DNA of 64,000 nt, taken from contig JAHPZA010000003.1 in NCBI GenBank assembly GCA_019058445.1, positions 292,819-356,818 of the forward strand, written 5' to 3'. Below, piece after piece: positions 1 to 41,200 of the stretch. The notes below the pieces were generated by a model that searched no databases, was not told the origin of the DNA, and was given only the letters and a program-made list of their open reading frames with translations. The DNA is from Promethearchaeota archaeon. Its GTDB lineage: Archaea; Asgardarchaeota; Lokiarchaeia; Sigyniarchaeales; SOKP01. How positions within the stretch are numbered: position 1 is the first letter of the stretch; each line of letters starts with the position of its first letter. The position numbers and the translations under genes were made by a program.

Positions 1-700
1 CTCCTTTTTTAAAGAATTCAGGAGGGCTCTTAAACAAAAAGCCTTTGTAGCATACATTTTTCTTTACTTTTGCTATATGGTCCTGGTAAGATCTATGACA
101 TCCTCAATCGCCTATTCAGTAAGATATATTTTAAAAATGGAAGCAAATGCAATCTCTTTAATCATGTTAGCTTTTCTCGTAGGTGTATTAATTTCAATTC
201 CAATATGGTATAAACTGGCAAATAGGATAAATAACAACCGTAAAGTAATGATAATATCAGGAACCCTTGTTGGACTTTTTGTATCACCCTTAATTATATT
301 AGAAGATTATACTCTTATTATTATTACTTTGTTCATATGGGGTTTAGCTGAGGGAGGCTTTTGGCTCATGTTATCACCAGTTTTTGCAGATACTATCGAT
401 GAATCAGTAGTAGAAACGGGTGAACGTAGAGAAGGATTATATAATGGATTTTTAGCTTTTTTTGCTCGACTGGCTATAGCAGCTCAAGCAATCAGTTTTG
501 CTGTAACACATACATTAACGGGATTCGTAGAAGGTGCCGATACCCAATCTGATTTGGCAGTATGGGGAATTCACATTCACCTTGCTTTGATCCCTATGAT
601 TTTCATGTTAATAGGGATATTTATCTTTTGGAAATTTTATGATCTCACCCCTAAACGTGTTCAAGAAGTCCAGCTTAAACTAAAGCAATTAAAACTCTAA
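1..700 (+). CDS. GPH/MelB-family (MFS_2) transporter, 5'-truncated by window edge
   Basis: Frame is open from position 2 (SFFKEFRRALKQKAFVAYIF...). C-terminal motifs (DTIDESVVETGERREGLY, VHTLTGF-like) are shared with the downstream paralogs. Confidence 0.9.
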   Translation, partial: SFFKEFRRALKQKAFVAYIFLYFCYMVLVRSMTSSIAYSVRYILKMEANAISLIMLAFLVGVLISIPIWYKLANRINNNRKVMIISGTLVGLFVSPLIILEDYTLIIITLFIWGLAEGGFWLMLSPVFADTIDESVVETGERREGLYNGFLAFFARLAIAAQAISFAVTHTLTGFVEGADTQSDLAVWGIHIHLALIPMIFMLIGIFIFWKFYDLTPKRVQEVQLKLKQLKL

Positions 701-747
701 ATTAATTAATTTTACATTTTTTTCAGATAACGTTTAGTAAAGCAAAA

Positions 748-776
748 TATATAAATTGATTCAACAAATATTGAAA
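748..776 (+). promoter_or_regulatory. TATA box plus conserved downstream motif (TTCAA-N6-TTGAA palindrome)
   Basis: TATATAAA at 748-755, then AACAAATATTGAAA 7 nt later. The same layout occurs at 2273-2301 and, degenerate, at 5105-5133. Confidence 0.55.
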
Positions 777-817
777 AAACGTAATCTATAATATATAAAA
801 CAAATTTGGTAATGTTT

Positions 818-2212
818 ATGGAAAATAAAGACACAGAAATATTACATTCGAAAAAAGAAATGGCTTCATACGGTTTCGGGAAGATAATCATGGAACTTTT
901 AAATATGGCATTTGGAGCATATGTGTTTTTCTATTATGAAAGTGAATTGGGATTAGATGTGTGGTTAATAGCTTTAGGTATCATCATATATGCAATTTGG
1001 AATTCCATCAATGATCCCTTTATCGGTTATTTAGTAGATCGCCCCTTTAAGTTCACGAAAAAATGGGGTAGACGATTTCCATGGGTATTAATTGGAGGAG
1101 TGCCATGGATCTTTTTTTACTTACTTCTTTTCATACCACCGGACGTTAATCCTCAAGAAGGAGCTTGGATCCTCTTTGCTTGGCTTGTAATCATAGCGTG
1201 TTTATATGATTTATTTGGATCACTTTATCTTGTAAATTTTACTTCGATTTTTCCCGATAAATTCCGTACAGAAAGTGAAAGAAGAGATGCAGGTGGAATT
1301 GGCACCCTGGTTGGGACTTTTGGCGTAGTTTTGGGGGCTATTGTACCTCCAATGTTCATAATTTTTGGGAATAGAACATCATATGCATTGCAAGGAGTAG
1401 TAATTATTATTATATGTTTAATAGCTTTAGGATTAACTATTCCAGGGATACGGGAAGATCAATATCGAATTGATTGCTATTTAGAGGTGTGCGAAGAGGG
1501 TTTTGAAAAAGAATCGTTTTTTAAGACACTTAAATACTGTATAAAACAAAAGAATTTCTTGGCCTATATTATCGCATTTGTGTTTTATTCAACTATGACG
1601 ACAATGATGATAGCATCCATTCCATTTCTCGTACGATTCGTATTTAAGATGGAAGCGGGAGCGGTGACTTTAATAATGGTAGGTTTTCTCCTTGGATCAT
1701 TTTGTTCCATTCCTTTATGGATTAAAATTGCTCATAAAACAAATGATGACCGGAAAACAATCATTATAACCGCGTTTTTTATGGCATTCGCTTTAATACC
1801 GATGATCTTTCTTAGAGACTATTATTTGTTCATTATTTCAGTTGCGATATGGGGTATAGGGCTAGGAGGTTTTTGGGCCATGCAAAATCCAGTTTTATCT
1901 AATGCGATTGATGAAAATGTAATTAATACCGGTAAAAGAGAAGAAGGGATATATGGTGGTATTCAAACCTTATTTTCACGTTTGGCAATTGCTATCCAAG
2001 CGATTTGTTTTGCAATTGTGCATACCCTCACTGGGTTTGTAGAAGGAGCTAACACACAATCTGAATTAGCAGTATGGGGTATAATTATTCATATGGCTTT
2101 GCTTCCAATGATTTTCATGTTCATAGGATCTTTCATACTTTTAAAATTCTATAATTTAACACCTGAAAAAGTAGCAATTAATAAAACTAAATTAGCTGAA
2201 ATGGGACTATAA
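818..2212 (+). CDS. GPH/MelB-family MFS transporter
   Basis: About 12 hydrophobic segments and the family motifs WNSINDPFIGYLVDR and WGRRFPW. Start is ATG 818 or 812. Confidence 0.92.
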   Translation: MENKDTEILHSKKEMASYGFGKIIMELLNMAFGAYVFFYYESELGLDVWLIALGIIIYAIWNSINDPFIGYLVDRPFKFTKKWGRRFPWVLIGGVPWIFFYLLLFIPPDVNPQEGAWILFAWLVIIACLYDLFGSLYLVNFTSIFPDKFRTESERRDAGGIGTLVGTFGVVLGAIVPPMFIIFGNRTSYALQGVVIIIICLIALGLTIPGIREDQYRIDCYLEVCEEGFEKESFFKTLKYCIKQKNFLAYIIAFVFYSTMTTMMIASIPFLVRFVFKMEAGAVTLIMVGFLLGSFCSIPLWIKIAHKTNDDRKTIIITAFFMAFALIPMIFLRDYYLFIISVAIWGIGLGGFWAMQNPVLSNAIDENVINTGKREEGIYGGIQTLFSRLAIAIQAICFAIVHTLTGFVEGANTQSELAVWGIIIHMALLPMIFMFIGSFILLKFYNLTPEKVAINKTKLAEMGL

Positions 2213-2342: not shown

Positions 2343-3737
2343 ATGGAAAATAAAGACATGGAAATATTACATTCTAAAAAAGAAATGGCTTCATATGGGT
2401 TCGGTAAGTTTGTAAATGAATTTCTGAATATGGCATTCGGTGCTTTGGTCTTTTTCTATTACGAAACTGAACTGGGTCTTGATGTCTGGTTAACAGCATT
2501 TGGTTATATTATATTTGCTCTCTGGAATGCTTTTAATGATCCAATACTAGGCTATTTAACAGATCGCCCTTTTAAATTTACGAAGAAATGGGGAAGACGC
2601 TTTCCATGGGTTTTTATCGGAGGAGTGCCTTGGATACTTAGCTATATCTTACTTTTTACACCCCCTGATGTTGATCCTAAACAAGGTGCTTGGATCTTGT
2701 TCGCATGGCTCGTATTTTCAACTTGTTTATACGATACCTTTGCTTCTCTGTTTAATGTCTCTTTCTACGGGCTTTTTCCCGATAAATTTCGTGAAGATAA
2801 AGAACGTAGAACTGCTGCTGGAATAAGTACTTTAGTAGGGACTTTTGGCGTAGCTTTAGGGGGAATTTTACCACCGCTGTTTATCGTATTTGGAGACAGA
2901 TCCTCATATGCGTTGCAATCGGGGATTGTTGTTATTACTTGTATAATAGCATTGGCATTAACAATTCCAGGGTGTAGGGAAGATCAATATCGAATTGATT
3001 GCTACTTAGAGAAGTGTGAAGAAGGATTTGACAAGGTGCCGTTTTTTAGTAACGTAAAATCATGCTTGAAACAAAAGAATTTCCTCGCGTATCTCAGTCA
3101 ATGGATCTTTTATCGAGCATTGGTTGTTATGATAATTGGCTCAATACCCTATCTCGTACGATTCGTATTAAAAATGGAAGCAAGCGCTGTGACTTTAATA
3201 ATGATTGGATTCCTTTTAGGCTCATTTTGTTCTATTCCAATATGGACTACAATTGCTCATAAAACCGACAATGATCGCAAAACATTCATTCTAGCAGCAT
3301 TTCTTATGACAGTACTCTTAATTCCATTAATATTCATCGTTGATTATGTCTTAGTCATTATTTTTGTAGCAATCTGGGGATTTAGCCTTGGAGGGTATTG
3401 GCTCATGCAAGATCCTGTATTATCTGAAATTATCGATGAATCTGTCATTTTAACTGGAAGAAGAGAAGAGGGCATCTATAATGGGGTGGTGAACTTCTTC
3501 GGTCGTTTAGCACTTGTTATTCAGGCTGTCTGCTTCGCGATAGTTCATACTTTAACTGGATTTGTAGAAGGCGCTCCCTCACAAACCGCCACAGCACAAT
3601 TGGGAATTCAAATTCATTTCGCCTTACTGCCAATGATTTTTATGTTATTTGCAACCTTAATACTATGGAAATGGTATAACTTAACGCCTGAAAAAGTTGC
3701 TGAGAATAAAACAAAACTAGCTGAAATGGGTTTGTAA
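2343..3737 (+). CDS. GPH/MelB-family MFS transporter
   Basis: Paralog of the 818 gene with a near-identical N-terminus (MENKDMEILHSKKEMASYGFGK), so the start is placed at 2343. Confidence 0.92.
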   Translation: MENKDMEILHSKKEMASYGFGKFVNEFLNMAFGALVFFYYETELGLDVWLTAFGYIIFALWNAFNDPILGYLTDRPFKFTKKWGRRFPWVFIGGVPWILSYILLFTPPDVDPKQGAWILFAWLVFSTCLYDTFASLFNVSFYGLFPDKFREDKERRTAAGISTLVGTFGVALGGILPPLFIVFGDRSSYALQSGIVVITCIIALALTIPGCREDQYRIDCYLEKCEEGFDKVPFFSNVKSCLKQKNFLAYLSQWIFYRALVVMIIGSIPYLVRFVLKMEASAVTLIMIGFLLGSFCSIPIWTTIAHKTDNDRKTFILAAFLMTVLLIPLIFIVDYVLVIIFVAIWGFSLGGYWLMQDPVLSEIIDESVILTGRREEGIYNGVVNFFGRLALVIQAVCFAIVHTLTGFVEGAPSQTATAQLGIQIHFALLPMIFMLFATLILWKWYNLTPEKVAENKTKLAEMGL

Positions 3738-6634: not shown

Positions 6635-8095
6635 CTATAAGTCTTTTATCTTATGAAACCTGTTTCTTTCAATGTATAAATCTATTTTACCTGCAGACTC
6701 CACATCAAATTCCACATTAGTTCTCCCTCCTAGTCCTGATAAGAAATAAAACTTAAATTCATCGAGAGATTCGGGAATTAAAGGAGCACTCATCCCATTA
6801 TTGAAAGGTGTAGGGCCTTCTTCGGGTTCAAGATAAACTACTGCTCCGCGTTTTATTACGGATAATTTATTTATGCCCTTATACGTTTCATAAAATCCCT
6901 GCAATAATGATAATTTCTGCTCTATCTCGATAAATTTAATATCTTTTAAAGGATTCTTCCCTAATAAAAATACCATAGTTAACAGAGGGATTGCAGAAAT
7001 AAGAGAATTTCCACCTCCAGAATTACATGCACATGCTATGCCAAGCTTTTTCTCTGGTATGAATCCAATGAATGATGTTGATACATTCGTTCCCCCCACA
7101 TGAAAAATTGTTGTATGCTCAAAAAAATCCTCAATTATGATCCAACCATAGCCATATCCCACTTTCTCAAATTCCCCTATTGCATCGCGTATTATATCAG
7201 TTTCAATATAGTTTGTATGCATTTTTTGTATCAAATCTTTATTTAATATCGTTGTTCCCTCAAAAGTACCTTGGTTAATATTCATTTTTATGTAATTTAT
7301 CTGTTCGATAGCCGAACTAAGCAATCCCCCCGGAGCAAAAATATATTTATCGAAGGGATGAGACGCAGGCTCGATTTGGATAATATTTCCATTTTCAAAT
7401 TTTGGAAAGTATGCTGTCATGATATCCGAATCTTTTTCAAACTCATCTCTTAAAAAACAGGAACGTTTCATGTTCAGAGGATTTAGTATGTTCTCTCTCA
7501 CATAATCTTCGTATTTCATGTTACTAACTTTTTCAATAACCACACCCAACATTGTATAACTTTCATTTGAATAAGCGAAGCGTTGTCCTGGCTCAGCTGC
7601 AACCTCTTGTTTCGCATCGTTTATGAAAGTTAAATAATCATCCCAGCTACTCAACGGAATATGATATTCATTGTAACCAGCATTACGACCAAGTAAAATT
7701 TCTGCAGTACCAAGATTAGGAATTCCAGATGAATGAGTTAAAAGATGATGAATGGTTATTGGATTTCTTTTCTTACCCAATTTAAAATTGAAATATTTTT
7801 TCACTGGATCATATAAATCTAATTTACCTTGTTCATATAACTGCATTACTGCTAATGCTGTATAAGATTTTGTGCATGAACCAAATCCATATAACGTGTT
7901 GGGTGTAGCAGGGATATTCATTTCTAAATTTCTAGCACCAAATCCTTTAGCATAAAGTATATCTTCTCCTGAAAGAACGGCTAGACTCATTCCAGGTATT
8001 TTAGATTCTTTCATAATGGAAGCAATGGAACTTTCCAAAAGTTCAAGTATGCCTACCGGAATAGTCTTTGGAGTATCGTTTTGACTCATAGACAT
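6635..8095 (-). CDS. Beta-lactamase-family serine hydrolase (S12/Pab87-like peptidase)
   Basis: SCTK (SxxK), LLTHSSG, YSN and HVGG motifs, plus a C-terminal extension. Confidence 0.85.
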   Translation of the reverse strand: MSMSQNDTPKTIPVGILELLESSIASIMKESKIPGMSLAVLSGEDILYAKGFGARNLEMNIPATPNTLYGFGSCTKSYTALAVMQLYEQGKLDLYDPVKKYFNFKLGKKRNPITIHHLLTHSSGIPNLGTAEILLGRNAGYNEYHIPLSSWDDYLTFINDAKQEVAAEPGQRFAYSNESYTMLGVVIEKVSNMKYEDYVRENILNPLNMKRSCFLRDEFEKDSDIMTAYFPKFENGNIIQIEPASHPFDKYIFAPGGLLSSAIEQINYIKMNINQGTFEGTTILNKDLIQKMHTNYIETDIIRDAIGEFEKVGYGYGWIIIEDFFEHTTIFHVGGTNVSTSFIGFIPEKKLGIACACNSGGGNSLISAIPLLTMVFLLGKNPLKDIKFIEIEQKLSLLQGFYETYKGINKLSVIKRGAVVYLEPEEGPTPFNNGMSAPLIPESLDEFKFYFLSGLGGRTNVEFDVESAGKIDLYIERNRFHKIKDL

Positions 8096-36109: not shown

Positions 36110-36262
36110 TTAATCGCGTTCATAAAATTTGCCTGGTTTTGCACCACAAAATGCCTCAAACTTGAAGAATGGCACAGTTTTTTCACAAGATGGACATGCA
36201 TAGGTTCCAGGAGCTGAATTTTGTAATACATAGTTACAGTTTGAACATATTGCCCACTTCAT
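36110..36262 (-). CDS. Small zinc-ribbon protein (Cys paralog of the 39298-39411 candidate selenoprotein)
   Basis: Manual translation: MKWAICSNCNYVLQNSAPGTYACPSCEKTVPFFKFEAFCGAKPGKFYERD*. Pattern CxxC-x13-CPxC-x12-C. Alternative ATG at 36286. Confidence 0.78.
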   Translation of the reverse strand: MKWAICSNCNYVLQNSAPGTYACPSCEKTVPFFKFEAFCGAKPGKFYERD

Positions 36263-36854: not shown

Positions 36855-36901
36855 ATATCCAGAACCCTTGCTGGGTTGTCATCGTGCGTCTCATTTTTTT
36901 T
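36855..36901 (-). ncRNA. SECIS-3, 3' half (separated from its 5' half by the IS)
   Basis: Minus strand AAAAAAAAUGAG-AC-GCACGA-UGAC-AACCC-AGCAA-GGGUU-CUGGAUAU, homologous to the 3' halves of SECIS-1 and SECIS-2. Confidence 0.75.
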
Positions 36902-38316
36902 CCTTTTTTTAAGTAGAAAACCATATCTTTTAGGAAATGGATGATCTTGTATAAAAATTATTAATCCCCTTCAGTTCTTACTTTTTTATAGAGCTTCAGT
37001 CAAATATTTATAATAGGATATCAAAAAAGGAGGATAACTCTTGAAAATTAACAAAACAATGAAGCTTCGGCTCTATCCGACCAAAATCCAACGAGAACTG
37101 TTGAATAAGACATTTGGCTGTTGCCGTCTTCTATGGAATCAGATGTTAGCGGAGCGCAACGAGGTATTTCAAGAATTTAAAGAGAACTCCGAAACCTTGA
37201 GGAATTATAAGTATAAAAAAGAAAAGGATTATAAACAAGAATTTGAGTTTATGAAAGAGGTCGATAGCAAGGCTTTACAATCTACAACCCTATACCTAAT
37301 AGAGGCATTCAATAATTTTTTTAATGGGTTAAAGGTGTCCCGAAAAGTAGGATATCCGAGGTTTAAATCAAAAAAAAGTAAACAATCCTATACTACTTAT
37401 AACATCAATAGCAATATTAAAATTGATTTTGACCTAAAACATATTAAGCTCCCAAAAATTAAAAAATGGATAAAGTATAAGGATGATAGGAGTTTTACCG
37501 AGCCAATTCGTCATGTAACCGTTTCGAAAACCAAGAGCGGACACTATTACTTGGCCATTTTGATTGAAAAAGAGCTTGATATCTCACCTCTAACGGAAAT
37601 CCACGAAGATCGTATAGGAGCATTTGATATGTCAGCCACAAGGTTTCTGATTAGTGAAACTGAAGACTTTTCCAATCCTAGGTTTTATAGATCCTCAGAA
37701 GCGAGGTTAAAGCAATTGCATCGCCAATTATCTCGCAAAAAAAAGAATTCTCAAAATCGACTGAAAACCAAGCTGAGACTTGCTCGAATGTATCAAAAGA
37801 TTTGGTATCAAAAATATGATTGGACACATAAAACGACCCTTAAACTAGCTAATAAATATGATGTAGTAGTCTTAGAAGACCTTAACATCCAAGGAATACA
37901 AAAATTTAACAGCGGTCTATCTAAATCCGTGACATTAGATTTTTCATGGCATCAGTTTAAAACATTGCTAAAATATAAACTTGAATGGCGAGGAAAGCAC
38001 TAACTAGAGGTGAATCGTTTTTTTCCTTCAAGCAAATTATGCTCTGTATGTGGGCATAAAAATATTGATTTAACATTAGCAGAACGCGTATGGGTATGTA
38101 CTGAATGCGGTACACAACATCATAGAGATAAAAATGCGTCAAGCAATCTAAAAAGAGAGGGTATTCGTCTCTTACAAGAAAGAGGAATTAAAGTCATTAT
38201 TTGACCTACCGTTGGGACGACGGGAAGTTACGCTTGTGGAGATCTTGTAAGACACCCTTTAAGGTGCTTTGGTCAGGGAAACAAGAATCCAGATCCTATA
38301 TGGACTGGTAGTTCAA
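36902..38316 (+). mobile_element. IS200/IS605-family tnpB-only (IS1341-type) element
   Basis: Related subterminal hairpins at 36921-36940 (CCATATCTTTTAGGAAATGG) and 38289-38308 (CCAGATCCTATATGGACTGG). Right end has a GAAT guide (38285-38288) and a TCAA terminus (38313-38316). No tnpA. Left junction is uncertain between 36902 and 36913. Confidence 0.85.
37041..38204 (+). pseudogene. tnpB: TnpB RNA-guided nuclease interrupted by in-frame TAA at 38001-38003
   Basis: LRLYPT..FGCCR, YPRFKSK, RuvC acidic motifs (AFDM, VLEDL). After the stop, in the same frame: [11 protein letters not shown]...CTECG..HHRDKNA. Confidence 0.88.
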
Positions 38317-38336
38317 GCAAGATTCATTCTAAACTG
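38205..38336 (+). ncRNA. Putative TnpB omegaRNA (right-end RNA) plus flanking guide
   Basis: GC-rich structured tract (CCTACCGTTGGGACGACGGGAAGTTACGCTTGTGGAGA...) between the tnpB stop and the TCAA end. The guide is inferred as the following ~16-20 nt. Confidence 0.65.
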
Positions 38337-38341
38337 GATAT
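38317..38341 (-). ncRNA. SECIS-3, 5' half
   Basis: Minus strand AUAUCCAG-UUUAGA-AUGAA-UCUUGC. AUAUCCAG pairs 8/8 with CUGGAUAU (36855-36862) and UCUUGC pairs 5/6 with GCACGA on the other side of the IS. Confidence 0.75.
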
Positions 38342-38468
38342 CTAATTATAAATATTTATTAATTGCATCCGTTAGTATATCTATTTAGGATTTATTAATT
38401 TAAAATATGGAAACAATTTATTGGTTAAAATGATTTAAATGTTTAATAACACTCATTAATTTTATAAA

Positions 38469-38533
38469 CCTTAATCCTTGGCTAGGATGTCAGCAAATGT
38501 CTAAAGTTTTTACATTTGCCTCATTCGTTAAGG
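38469..38533 (-). ncRNA. SECIS-1, eukaryote-type, in the 3' UTR of the UxxU peroxiredoxin-like gene
   Basis: CCUUA-ACGA-AUGAG-GCAAAUGU-AAAAACUUUAG-ACAUUUGC-UGAC-AUCCU-AGCCA-AGGAU-UAAGG. It has the AUGA/UGA quartet core, an 8-bp helix II and an A-rich apical loop. Confidence 0.9.
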
Positions 38534-38582
38534 AAAGAATTTAAAATTTCAGTTAAGGAATGGTGTATCGATTATCATTTAC

Positions 38583-39098
38583 TTATAAATATTTATCAAT
38601 CGCATCAGTTAATATTTCTATTGTGGGTCTATCTTCTTTACTACCTATATAATACCAAACTATTTCTCCATTTTTTTTAATAAGTACTTTAGCAGGAAGA
38701 GCATTATTAACTTGTAAATCATCATGACCATCGGTTTTTTCTGTTACAAACATATTATATGATTTAGCTATTTTTCCGCCTTTATCAGGGATAGTCGTGA
38801 AATTAAAATTATTAACTTCTTTCATCTTTTTCAATCGTCTAGTACTATCTTTTGCTATTGCTATTAACTTTACGTTGCGTTTTTCGAACTCTGACATATT
38901 TTTGGTTAAGTATTTAAAGTGTTCTATTCAATATACTCACCATCCCCCTCTAAAGAAGTCGATTAAAACCCCTCGATGGTTCTCAAGCATAATCGCTAAA
39001 TTTGCTTCATTCCCATCAATGTCGGTTGTATCGATAGTAGGAGCTTTGGAACCAATAGGTAATCCTTTATTAGGTATAGAAATATGTAAATCTGTCAT
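38583..39098 (-). CDS. AhpC/TSA (peroxiredoxin-like, thioredoxin fold) selenoprotein with UxxU motif, 171 aa
   Basis: MTDLHISIPNKGLPIGSKAPTIDTTDIDGNEANLAIMLENHRGVLIDFFRGGW-U-VY-U-IEHFKYLTKN continues in frame into the 104-aa ORF (38583-38897). TGA at 38937-38939 and 38928-38930 occupy both Cys sites of the family FxRGxWCPxC motif. A SECIS lies downstream. Confidence 0.92.
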
Positions 39099-39193
39099 TA
39101 TTAACAATAAAAACAATAGAAATAAAAAGGATATTGAAATATTTTAAAAGAAAAAATAAAGAAAAATGATTAATTGTGTGTAGCGTTTTTTAA

Positions 39194-39260
39194 TCCTTAA
39201 TCCTTGGCTAGGCCGTCAGCATACGTCTATATTTTATACGTCTGCCTCATTCTATTAGGA
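39194..39260 (-). ncRNA. SECIS-2, eukaryote-type
   Basis: UCCUAAUAGA-AUGAG-GCAGACGU-AUAAAAUAUAG-ACGUAUGC-UGAC-GGCCU-AGCCA-AGGAU-UAAGGA. Helix II has a compensatory U-A to C-G change relative to SECIS-1. Confidence 0.88.
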
Positions 39261-39297
39261 ATTAAATTAAATTTTTTAATTACGTCAGATATATGAT

Positions 39298-39411
39298 TTA
39301 TCATTTAAATCTTAGTTCCATGAAAAATACAAATCTTCGACAGTTAGGGCAATAATAGTATCCACTCGTATTCTCTTGTATTGTATGTCCACACTTTTGG
39401 CATATTATCAT
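39298..39411 (-). CDS. Zinc-ribbon microprotein with putative C-terminal selenocysteine (37 aa)
   Basis: MIICQKCGHTIQENTSGYYYCPNCRRFVFFMELRFK-TGA-TAA. The TGA aligns to a Cys of the 36110-36262 paralog. The SECIS-2 core is 50 nt downstream. Confidence 0.72.
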
Positions 39412-39654
39412 ATGGTATCATTTAGTTGATAATTTGACATCTTTTAAAGTTTAATTTTATATTTTAAATATTAATTAGCAAATCATATTTATATATATAA
39501 ATCCGAGAAAAAAGTCGCTTTTTTCAGATGAAAACACGTACATAAAATTGCGTAATTAAATTTATATTATCCAACCCTATTATTATATCAATTCCTAAAA
39601 GTATAATGCATTGAAATATTATCTAAAATATTAACAGAAAGGGGTTGTTTTTTT

Positions 39655-40407
39655 ATAAATATCGTTAAAATAATCGTTGACGGATTTGGTGGAGTAGGAA
39701 AGACAACCTTACTCAAAAAACTCGAGTACGGAATCTTCGACCCAGATACAAGGTTAACGATCGGATGCGATTTTTTTGCTAAAAAAACAAACCTTTTTGG
39801 ACATAGTGTAACTGCACAATTTTGGGATTTAGTAGGAGCAGCCCGATTTAATTTTTTGCGACCAATTTGTTATAAGGGAGCAAATTGTATTGTTTTAGTG
39901 GCAGACCTCACGAGACCAATCACTTTTGAGCGAATTGATTATTTTATTGAAGTCGCAAAAAAAGCTAATATTAATCCTAATCAAATTATTTTAGTAGGAG
40001 CCAAAACAGACTTATTTTATGAAAGAAGCGTTGACTCCCTTTATTTATCAACAATTTTAGAAAAGCTTGGCATATCCGAATCCGTAGAAACATCGGCAAG
40101 AAATAACCATAATTTAGAGGAATTATTTGAATTAGCTACTGCCTTGGCAATGTATCACAAGGGAATGATTACTGAAAATGAATATATCTTTATGAAAGAA
40201 GAAGTTAAACAGAGAATTAAAGAACCAGTGCCCGAACCATATGAAAAATTAATAAGAAAATGCTGGAAGTGTGGAAGATCGTTATTCTTTCACGAATTTT
40301 GCGATTCTAATAATAAAATTTATAATGAAGAGAGATTATTAGAATTATGGGAAAATCCTGTTCTTGAATTTTATTGCTGTGCTTGTTATAAAGAGCTAAC
40401 TTCTTAA
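39655..40407 (+). CDS. Rab-like small GTPase with C-terminal Cys-rich domain, non-canonical start
   Basis: Frame is open upstream of the tracked ORF: IVKIIVDGFGGVGKTT (G1), TIGCDF (G2), WDLVGA (G3), GAKTD (G4), ETSAR (G5), then CWKC...CCAC. No in-frame ATG/GTG/TTG before 39856. Confidence 0.85.
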   Translation: MNIVKIIVDGFGGVGKTTLLKKLEYGIFDPDTRLTIGCDFFAKKTNLFGHSVTAQFWDLVGAARFNFLRPICYKGANCIVLVADLTRPITFERIDYFIEVAKKANINPNQIILVGAKTDLFYERSVDSLYLSTILEKLGISESVETSARNNHNLEELFELATALAMYHKGMITENEYIFMKEEVKQRIKEPVPEPYEKLIRKCWKCGRSLFFHEFCDSNNKIYNEERLLELWENPVLEFYCCACYKELTS

Positions 40408-40432: not shown

Positions 40433-41200
40433 TTAATCATTTAAAATTTGTTTAACAATTTTCTCCATTTCAATAAGACTCGGAGACTCATCTAATAGTT
40501 CAATTATAGGTTTACCTTCCAAATCATAATTCGTAATATTTTGATCATCCGGTATCTGTCCGATTATGGGTAAGTTTAATTCATTTAATTTCTTATAAAT
40601 AATCTCTATGTTCCCTTTTACTTTATTAATAATAACTCCTATTTTTTTGTAGCTTGTGAACTTTTTAGCACTCTTCCTAATGGAATTAGCGGTTTCAATG
40701 CTTCTTAAAGAGATATCAGTGACAATTATTATGAAATCGACGGATTTTAAGACCATTCGATTAATTTGCTCAAGTCCTGCTTCGCAATCGATTAAGATAA
40801 TATTAAAATCTTTCGTAATTGATTCTAATACTTTTCTTAATAGAGTATTTGAAGGACAAAAACATCCCGGTCCCTCCGGCTGTCCAATTGAAAATAAGCA
40901 AAAATTTTTACTTTCAGCCATCCCTTCATATACATCAAAATCAATTCTTTCTGCGAGTTTTTGAGTATCTTCACTTTTACTGTGGGCTTGTCTTACAGCA
41001 TTAAGTCTAATTTGTTCAAGACTCTTCTCAGGAGTAAGTTTTACCATACTACATAAATGAGGGTGAGTCGGATCGGCATCAATTAACAGCATCTTATAAT
41101 CATATAATTGAGTAATTATTTTAGCCATTAGAGTTGTAAGTACGGTTTTACCAACTCCTCCCTTTCCTGTTACGGCAATTGTAAGTGGATTAGCTTTCAT
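40433..41200 (-). CDS. cooC: CooC/AcsF-type nickel-insertion ATPase
   Basis: GKGGVGKT, IDADP, GCFCP (CxC) and DCEAGLEQ motifs. Confidence 0.85.
   Translation of the reverse strand: MKANPLTIAVTGKGGVGKTVLTTLMAKIITQLYDYKMLLIDADPTHPHLCSMVKLTPEKSLEQIRLNAVRQAHSKSEDTQKLAERIDFDVYEGMAESKNFCLFSIGQPEGPGCFCPSNTLLRKVLESITKDFNIILIDCEAGLEQINRMVLKSVDFIIIVTDISLRSIETANSIRKSAKKFTSYKKIGVIINKVKGNIEIIYKKLNELNLPIIGQIPDDQNITNYDLEGKPIIELLDESPSLIEMEKIVKQILND

Follow-up and report, generated by a model that had tools for sequence, protein, structure and literature searches.

The gene at 38583..39098 on the minus strand of the window (the whole stretch of 64,000 nucleotides of Promethearchaeota archaeon DNA analysed here) encodes a peroxiredoxin-like selenoprotein of the PrxL.1 type, called PrxL below, with in-frame TGA codons at both positions of its redox box. 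Taken together, the evidence makes it highly probable that the product is a double-selenocysteine (Sec) redoxin which is decoded by means of a lokiSECIS and functions as a low-potential diselenide oxidoreductase. The gene type, its family, the lokiSECIS and the proposed diselenide were all described in 2016, which makes the window gene one more member of a known family; as a selenoprotein, PrxL adds nothing to what was published then on the double-Sec protein, its lokiSECIS and the diselenide idea.

The gene was delimited by frame reading, Pfam matches, homologues, dN/dS and an AlphaFold2 (AF2) model. Its frame runs from an ATG at 39098 through 171 codons to a TAA at 38585-38583, and the only stops inside it are two TGAs, codon 54 (38937..38939, minus strand) at the N-terminal redox position and codon 57 (38928..38930, minus strand) at the second. 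The start codon is fixed by the orthologues, which all begin with the same M-T-D/E. The redox box reads F-F-R-G-G-W-U-V-Y-U-I-E-H with V-Y as spacer residues, and there is no Cys among the 171 residues. The initial annotation had described TGA-GTA-TAT-TGA after FFRGGW in place of both Cys, a 171-aa frame intact on both sides of the TGAs and an ORF track reporting only the last 104 aa. The two codons were located as described, the frame was followed from 39098 to 38583 without any other stop, and in a table-11 ORF list the gene appears as two pieces, one N-terminal of 59 aa and one C-terminal of 104 aa (38583..38897).

Pfam AhpC-TSA matches residues 15-148 with both TGAs inside the match (E 6e-22, 78 bits), and Pfam Redoxin gives 55 bits. 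Mariotti et al. 2016 (PMC4989117) describe PrxL.1 of Loki as a protein whose redox box holds two Sec, with no Cys elsewhere and with a lokiSECIS of 9-bp stem and 11-nt loop. The window gene is assigned to PrxL.1 by its match to that description: it has the AhpC/TSA fold, UGA for both Cys of the CxxC motif, no Cys outside it, a single lokiSECIS in the 3' UTR (9-bp stem, 11-nt loop) and a Sec-competent, Loki-type host genome with an additional UxxC paralogue of the PrxL.2 type. No difference in kind was found; the local features are the V-Y spacer, the copied SECIS and the gene order with zinc-ribbon microproteins. Two later sources return to the family: Huang et al. 2024 (PMC11227280) find it in 43% of the Asgard genomes that use Sec, and a 2026 review (PMC13188914) lists a 'Prx-like thiol:disulfide oxidoreductase, UxxC, UxxU' with 1~2 Sec. 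The annotators' reading of the gene as a Prx-like selenoprotein of a Lokiarchaeial genome, with a UxxU box and a SECIS of eukaryote-like form, is thus supported, and so is their suspicion that such proteins had already been described, since PMC4989117 draws the same diselenide inference and the same comparison with SelL.

Fold, active site and proposed chemistry

The AF2 model of PrxL, built on a 16-sequence alignment, has a mean pLDDT of 92.4. It places U54 immediately before a helix of residues 55-66 and U57 in the first turn of that helix, which is the classical position of a CxxC motif. The best solved folds for the model are Bcp4, BcpB, AhpE and PrxQ (PDB 3hjp, 2cx3/4gqf, 1xxu) with TM scores of 0.72-0.81. 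When PrxL is aligned with PrxQ of Aeropyrum pernix, U57 falls on the peroxidatic Cys, U54 on Ser/Thr, R50 on the Pro of the motif and the invariant P135 on the catalytic Arg. The resemblance to PrxQ/BCP and AhpE thus extends to the fold and to the position of U57, but their active-site Pro, Thr and Arg are R50, U54 and P135 in PrxL. Three of the four Prx catalytic residues are therefore missing and PrxL is not a peroxiredoxin sensu stricto; with its thioredoxin-type cis-Pro it is Prx-like by fold and thioredoxin-like by active site, in line with published accounts of PrxL.

These substitutions weigh on the strongest alternative, namely that the same protein, decoded in the same way, is a peroxidase on the model of a selenoprotein Prx (TxxU) or GPx, in which U57 attacks the peroxide and the resulting selenenic acid is resolved by U54, giving a diselenide. 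In favour of it, the reaction of Sec with peroxides is fast, the top structural matches are all peroxiredoxins, and U57 aligns with the peroxidatic Cys of the Aeropyrum enzyme. On the other hand, the invariant cis-Pro135 that replaces the catalytic Arg is typical of thioredoxin-like oxidoreductases, and together with the absent Prx residues it favours a diselenol/diselenide oxidoreductase, so that we consider the peroxidase unlikely. The same objection is raised for PrxL in PMC4989117.

In the favoured reading, PrxL is a cytoplasmic protein of thioredoxin fold that most likely alternates between a diselenol state and a diselenide formed within the molecule, serving as a low-potential selenol/thiol-disulfide oxidoreductase and differing in this from classical peroxiredoxins. 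Both U54 and U57 would be read as Sec by Sec-tRNA(Sec) and EFSec, and one eukaryote-like lokiSECIS in the 3' UTR would direct insertion at both UGA codons. The frame, the fold, the pairing of Sec with Cys, the structure and covariation of the SECIS, the Sec machinery and purifying selection come from the analysis itself, whereas we infer that Sec is actually inserted, that a diselenide forms, that its redox potential is low and what the substrate is; for the diselenide and the low potential the grounds are the precedent of SelL and a general property of diselenides (PMC2397514).

A diselenide has been demonstrated experimentally in SelL (Shchedrina et al. 2007, as cited in PMC2397514 and PMC4989117), a protein of aquatic animals and some marine bacteria. 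SelL resembles PrxL in having UxxU within a Prx-like thioredoxin fold and one SECIS for two UGA codons that lie two codons apart, but its SECIS is of another type, the host domain is different and the sequence relationship is remote. Against the NCBIfam SelL-related model NF040769, PrxL scores 32.2 bits with a cut-off of 120 and shares only the UxxU motif. On this score PrxL falls outside the SelL-related proteins, with which the annotators had proposed a comparison.

Membership in the ResA/TlpA/DsbE group of extracytoplasmic thiol-disulfide oxidoreductases was also considered and rejected. The scores are far below the cut-offs (ResA 50.6 against 170, DsbE 21 against 123), and although PrxL has the CxxC position and the cis-Pro, direct reading of its N-terminus reveals no hydrophobic stretch. 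The CxxC 'Prx-like' redoxins share with PrxL the fold, the context F-[FY]-R-G-x-W, a CxxC motif at the positions of U54 and U57 and a cis-Pro at 135. They differ in having Cys and not Sec, and several of them are two-domain or multi-domain proteins; in a word-based search none was closer than about 40% identity. These redoxins, with the motif F-Y-R-G-x-W-C-P-x-C, are widespread (CDD PRX_like2).

SECIS elements and history of the locus

The working lokiSECIS of PrxL (SECIS-1) lies at 38469..38534 on the minus strand. Its AUGA core (38524-38521) begins 58 nt past the TAA, in agreement with the roughly 60 nt given in the initial annotation. The element consists of helix 1, the AUGA, a 9-bp helix 2, an 11-nt A-rich loop and a GA at 38491-38490, followed by a CC..GG mini-hairpin and the return strand of helix 1; 9/9 pairs of the stem form and every invariant base is present. 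Nine base pairs and an 11-nt loop are also what PMC4989117 gives for the lokiSECIS of PrxL, VhuU and HdrA-VhuD.

Covariation was analysed in 18 elements, which were taken from PrxL and microprotein genes both here and in related genomes and pre-filtered for at least 6 of 9 pairs. Compensatory changes are seen at all nine pairs of helix 2, and 85% of the cells are paired compared with 24-50% in slid controls; the filter pushes up the paired percentage, whereas the compensatory changes are not inflated by it. Little or no variation is seen in the AUGA, the GAC, three A's of the loop and the CC/GG of the mini-hairpin. The SECIS families of Rfam were not found over the window at gathering thresholds, nor over 38300-39450 at E values up to 10. 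This miss is not counted against SECIS-1 because, according to Mariotti 2016 (PMC4989117), the existing archaeal, bacterial and eukaryotic SECIS-finding tools likewise gave no significant match on Loki selenoprotein genes. A loose pattern applied to the genome was discarded, as its 247 matches are mostly spurious, and only the strict form (9-bp stem, 11-nt loop ending in AG, then GAC) is usable.

SECIS-1 is a diverged copy of the element of a neighbouring gene. Directly upstream of PrxL, on the minus strand, is a zinc-ribbon microprotein (CxxC...CxxC) of 37 codons (39301..39411), the last of which is a TGA (39303-39301) followed by a TAA, and its own lokiSECIS at 39195..39261 (minus strand) is the parent of SECIS-1. 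The live PrxL gene is followed by a copy of the last bases of the microprotein gene and its 3' UTR (A-A-T-G-A-T-A-A onward), SECIS included. The two copies of the 3' UTR are 81% identical over their aligned part and identical over an 18-nt 3' part, and helix 2 of SECIS-1 differs from that of its parent by one compensatory C-G to U-A change. PrxL thus appears to use a copy of its neighbour's SECIS at present, the activity of the copy being a prediction from its sequence.

The ancestral SECIS of PrxL can still be recognised in two halves on the minus strand. The 5' half (38317..38343) contains helix 1, AUGA at 38327-38324 and the first 7 nt of helix 2, and up to the break it matches the SECIS of the nearest orthologue, L024, which is intact and lies 18 nt past the stop. 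The 3' half (36855..36899), read against L024, contains the loop, the helix 2 return, GA-C, the mini-hairpin and the helix 1 return. The halves are separated by an insertion of roughly 1.4 kb that carries a broken IS605-family tnpB on the plus strand (37041..38204; HTH_OrfB_IS605, OrfB_IS605 and Cas12f1-like TNB matches), split by a stop into frames of 320 aa and 64 aa. In addition, alignment with the live gene and L024 identifies about 55 nt at 38346..38400 (minus strand) as what is left of another PrxL copy, namely part of its 3' end (..L-T-D-A-I-N-K-Y-L-stop). The simplest reading of this arrangement is a tandem duplication of the unit of microprotein end, SECIS and PrxL, after which the second PrxL copy largely disappeared; the insertion may have entered the ancestral SECIS, redundant by then, either before or after these two steps.

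The split ancestral element and the truncated second copy alongside it might also suggest a gene on its way to loss, in which the insertion ended Sec insertion and left the frame recently orphaned. The frame is intact, however, with both TGAs kept, the SECIS copy downstream is complete and carries a compensatory change, and dN/dS is 0.23 against the nearest orthologue (87% identical). For the 53 codons 5' of the first TGA dN/dS is 0.59, a value from 11 changes only and so uninformative by itself; G12, P20, F48 and R50, however, are invariant across 16 orthologues. Impending loss is accordingly very improbable. Pseudogene-like decay with TGAs not conserved in relatives, which the annotators had kept in mind, is not what is found: the TGAs are conserved and the gene is under purifying selection.

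Decoding of the TGA codons

A six-frame search of 60 related genomes gave 21 full or near-full homologues from 18 genomes. The first redox position is TGA in 21/21 and never varies, the second is TGA in 9 (UxxU) and Cys in 12 (UxxC), and stops other than TGA are absent from all of them. Conservation of this kind excludes chance. The spacer between the two positions is variable (VY, AH, SH, KP, GH, HG, NT, IP, VP, QH, EH). At the second position, a maximum-likelihood tree calls for at least two switches between Sec and Cys and most parsimoniously four, with U-K-P-C and U-K-P-U as sister sequences (support 99/96); we therefore read the second position as having switched at least twice, probably four times.

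More distant proteins have Cys at both positions. A profile search over 1.84 billion representatives gave 31,516 matches, and among the best 150 that were inspected, 117 aligned domains have Cys at profile positions 54 and 57 together with Pro at 135, typically in the motif F-Y-R-G-x-W-C-P-x-C. Both Sec positions thus pair with Cys. The alignment with CxxC and UxxC homologues suggested in the initial annotation places U54 and U57 on the two Cys of CxxC, and 12 of the 21 homologues read UxxC.

Public annotation reads the locus differently. The closest entries to emerge when 5.8 billion proteins were searched by words are truncations of 104-114 aa, besides two full-length ones, and one of the truncated entries bears the name 'peroxiredoxin family protein [Promethearchaeota archaeon]'. 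Such entries, of 104 and 114 aa, correspond to the view that the TGAs are ordinary stops which leave a 53-aa peptide and a 104-aa C-terminal piece from an internal ATG. That piece would have neither the redox box nor half of the fold, and the frame continues across the TGAs in every homologue, while the same-family homologues also have a downstream SECIS, so this view is hardly credible. The two full-length entries have W at the TGA position, which is an artefact of gene calling. Even less credible is that TGA is a sense codon (Trp or Cys) genome-wide, as the W in some homologues' entries might suggest, because it terminates 250 of the 1,984 open frames of at least 300 codons in the same genome and is absent from the interior of the housekeeping matches SepSecS, PSTK and EFSec, occurring internally, among the families searched, only in PrxL genes and SelD; the codon is not reassigned.

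The assembly searched (4.6 Mb, 10 contigs, 92.6% complete) contains the Sec pathway, which the annotators had recommended looking for and whose absence would have told against Sec. SepSecS is at C6:1056455-1057600 (380 bits), EFSec from C6:1064111 onward (242 bits, at the TIGR00475 cut-off), PSTK at C4:303842-304594 (149 bits, full length) and SelD, itself Sec-containing with one in-frame TGA, at C10:463853-464689 (189 bits). Between SepSecS and EFSec, on the minus strand, is a tRNA-Sec precursor of 158 nt (C6 about 1059756-1059913; L022 about 7757-7914). It folds into a 9/4 cloverleaf with a 9-bp acceptor, a 6-bp D stem, a 6-bp anticodon stem, a C-U-U-C-A-A-A loop with UCA anticodon, a long variable arm, a 4-bp T stem, G73 and an encoded CCA. 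The D loop and the T loop of the gene each carry an insertion of about 30 nt, both presumably spliced out; the published Loki tRNA-Sec (PMC4989117) has only a T-loop intron of 31 nt. Parts of the two insertions could pair with one another over 9 bp (U-C-C-A-A-C-G-A-U with A-U-C-G-U-U-G-G-G). A search of the whole genome with the Rfam tRNA-Sec model gave no match at E <= 0.001, and because of the two insertions the gene scores only 28 bits. A 'tRNA-SeC' reported by ARAGORN at C1:27020-27126 was rejected, as it is a class-II tRNA (45.7 bits, 7/5 fold) with a canonical 37/38 intron and reads as tRNA-Ser(UGA).

Other genes of the assembly also appear to encode Sec. The second Prx-like selenoprotein, with a U-P-Y-C box of the PrxL.2 type, is found in C6:495000-497200 (L048, 830..1315, minus strand) and is 26% identical to PrxL. 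Outside the window, at C3:242273 on the plus strand, a VhuU/FrhA-like C-terminus (..C-F-D-C-U-L-S-C-A-A-H..) is followed by its own lokiSECIS, with the apparent TGA stop overlapping the AUGA core. A 156-aa ORF without a Pfam family (L045, C6:631000-634300, 2576..3046, plus strand) has adjacent in-frame TGAs (..D-V-G-C-U-U-E-A-V..) and, 11 nt past its stop, a perfect lokiSECIS with 9/9 bp, 11-nt loop, GAC and mini-hairpin; it is a candidate for an undescribed selenoprotein. Just upstream of it is an hgcAB-like pair (127..2125, plus strand), the first gene of which is a 549-aa fusion of a SAM methyltransferase with a CdhD/HgcA-like domain (I-N-V-W-C-A-A-R-G) and a membrane tail, and the second a two-cluster ferredoxin ending in ..L-C-C-G. 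Finally, a 126-aa ORF, also without a Pfam family (L046, C10:78900-80400, 403..783, minus strand), has one in-frame TGA (G-G-S-U-T-M-A-F-C) and a SECIS-like hairpin 6 nt past its stop, a weaker match with a GA-T tail and not GA-C.

Zinc-ribbon microproteins and implications

The microprotein upstream of PrxL is not peculiar to this genome. At 9/15 loci of the same family a microprotein gene lies directly upstream of PrxL on the same strand, and the codon of its last residue is TGA in 7 and Cys in 2. A lokiSECIS follows 6 of the 7 that end in TGA; the seventh, at L024, has an altered core (..G-C-U-A-A-C.. compared with ..G-C-U-G-A-C.. here), in which the 3' G-A of the kink-turn core is A-A, which may reflect decay of the element or a mistake in the assembly. 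Within 110 nt past the stop of the two Cys-ending microproteins no SECIS was found. Among these 9 loci only, those with a Sec-ending microprotein comprise 4 UxxU and 3 UxxC boxes and those with a Cys-ending one 0 UxxU and 2 UxxC, counts too small to support any conclusion on co-variation. A longer, Cys-type paralogue (..F-E-A-F-C-G-x-K-P..) is found downstream of PrxL at six loci, five in relatives and one in the window, where it encodes 50 aa (..F-E-A-F-C-G-A-K-P..; 36110..36262, minus strand) beyond the insertion.

The conserved gene order supports, but does not prove, a functional link between the microprotein and PrxL, a partnership that the annotators had suggested, and makes the microprotein a candidate partner. 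On the basis of this gene order we tentatively suggest that PrxL and its flanking zinc-ribbon microproteins might form a dedicated, selenium-based redox relay, although we hold this to be doubtful. In such a relay a diselenide or selenenylsulfide would be exchanged between the UxxU or UxxC box of PrxL and the microprotein's single Sec or Cys, which would sit at the end of the zinc ribbon or 12 residues after it. The family of Sec-tipped microproteins is an unpublished piece of the locus; in the portions of PMC4989117, PMC11227280 and PMC13188914 accessible to us there is no mention of the zinc-ribbon microprotein gene order. The selenoprotein cluster is flanked by a Ras/Rab-like GTPase fragment with a Cys-rich tail (39856-40407, plus strand), the listed ORF of which starts inside the G domain, and by a P-loop ATPase of the CooC/MinD type (40433-41200, minus strand).

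What the locus adds to the published description is modest, namely the exchange of the SECIS, the labile second Sec and the conserved microprotein neighbours. There is a practical side in that public annotation misreads PrxL genes, either shortening them to 104 aa or putting W in place of Sec. Close relatives that differ in having UxxU or UxxC form a natural series, which could be used to measure the benefit of a diselenide box compared with a selenenylsulfide box. At this locus a SECIS destroyed by an insertion could be replaced by a copy from the neighbouring gene, and provided that the copy is active, as is predicted, this argues directly that lokiSECIS elements of different genes can stand in for one another.
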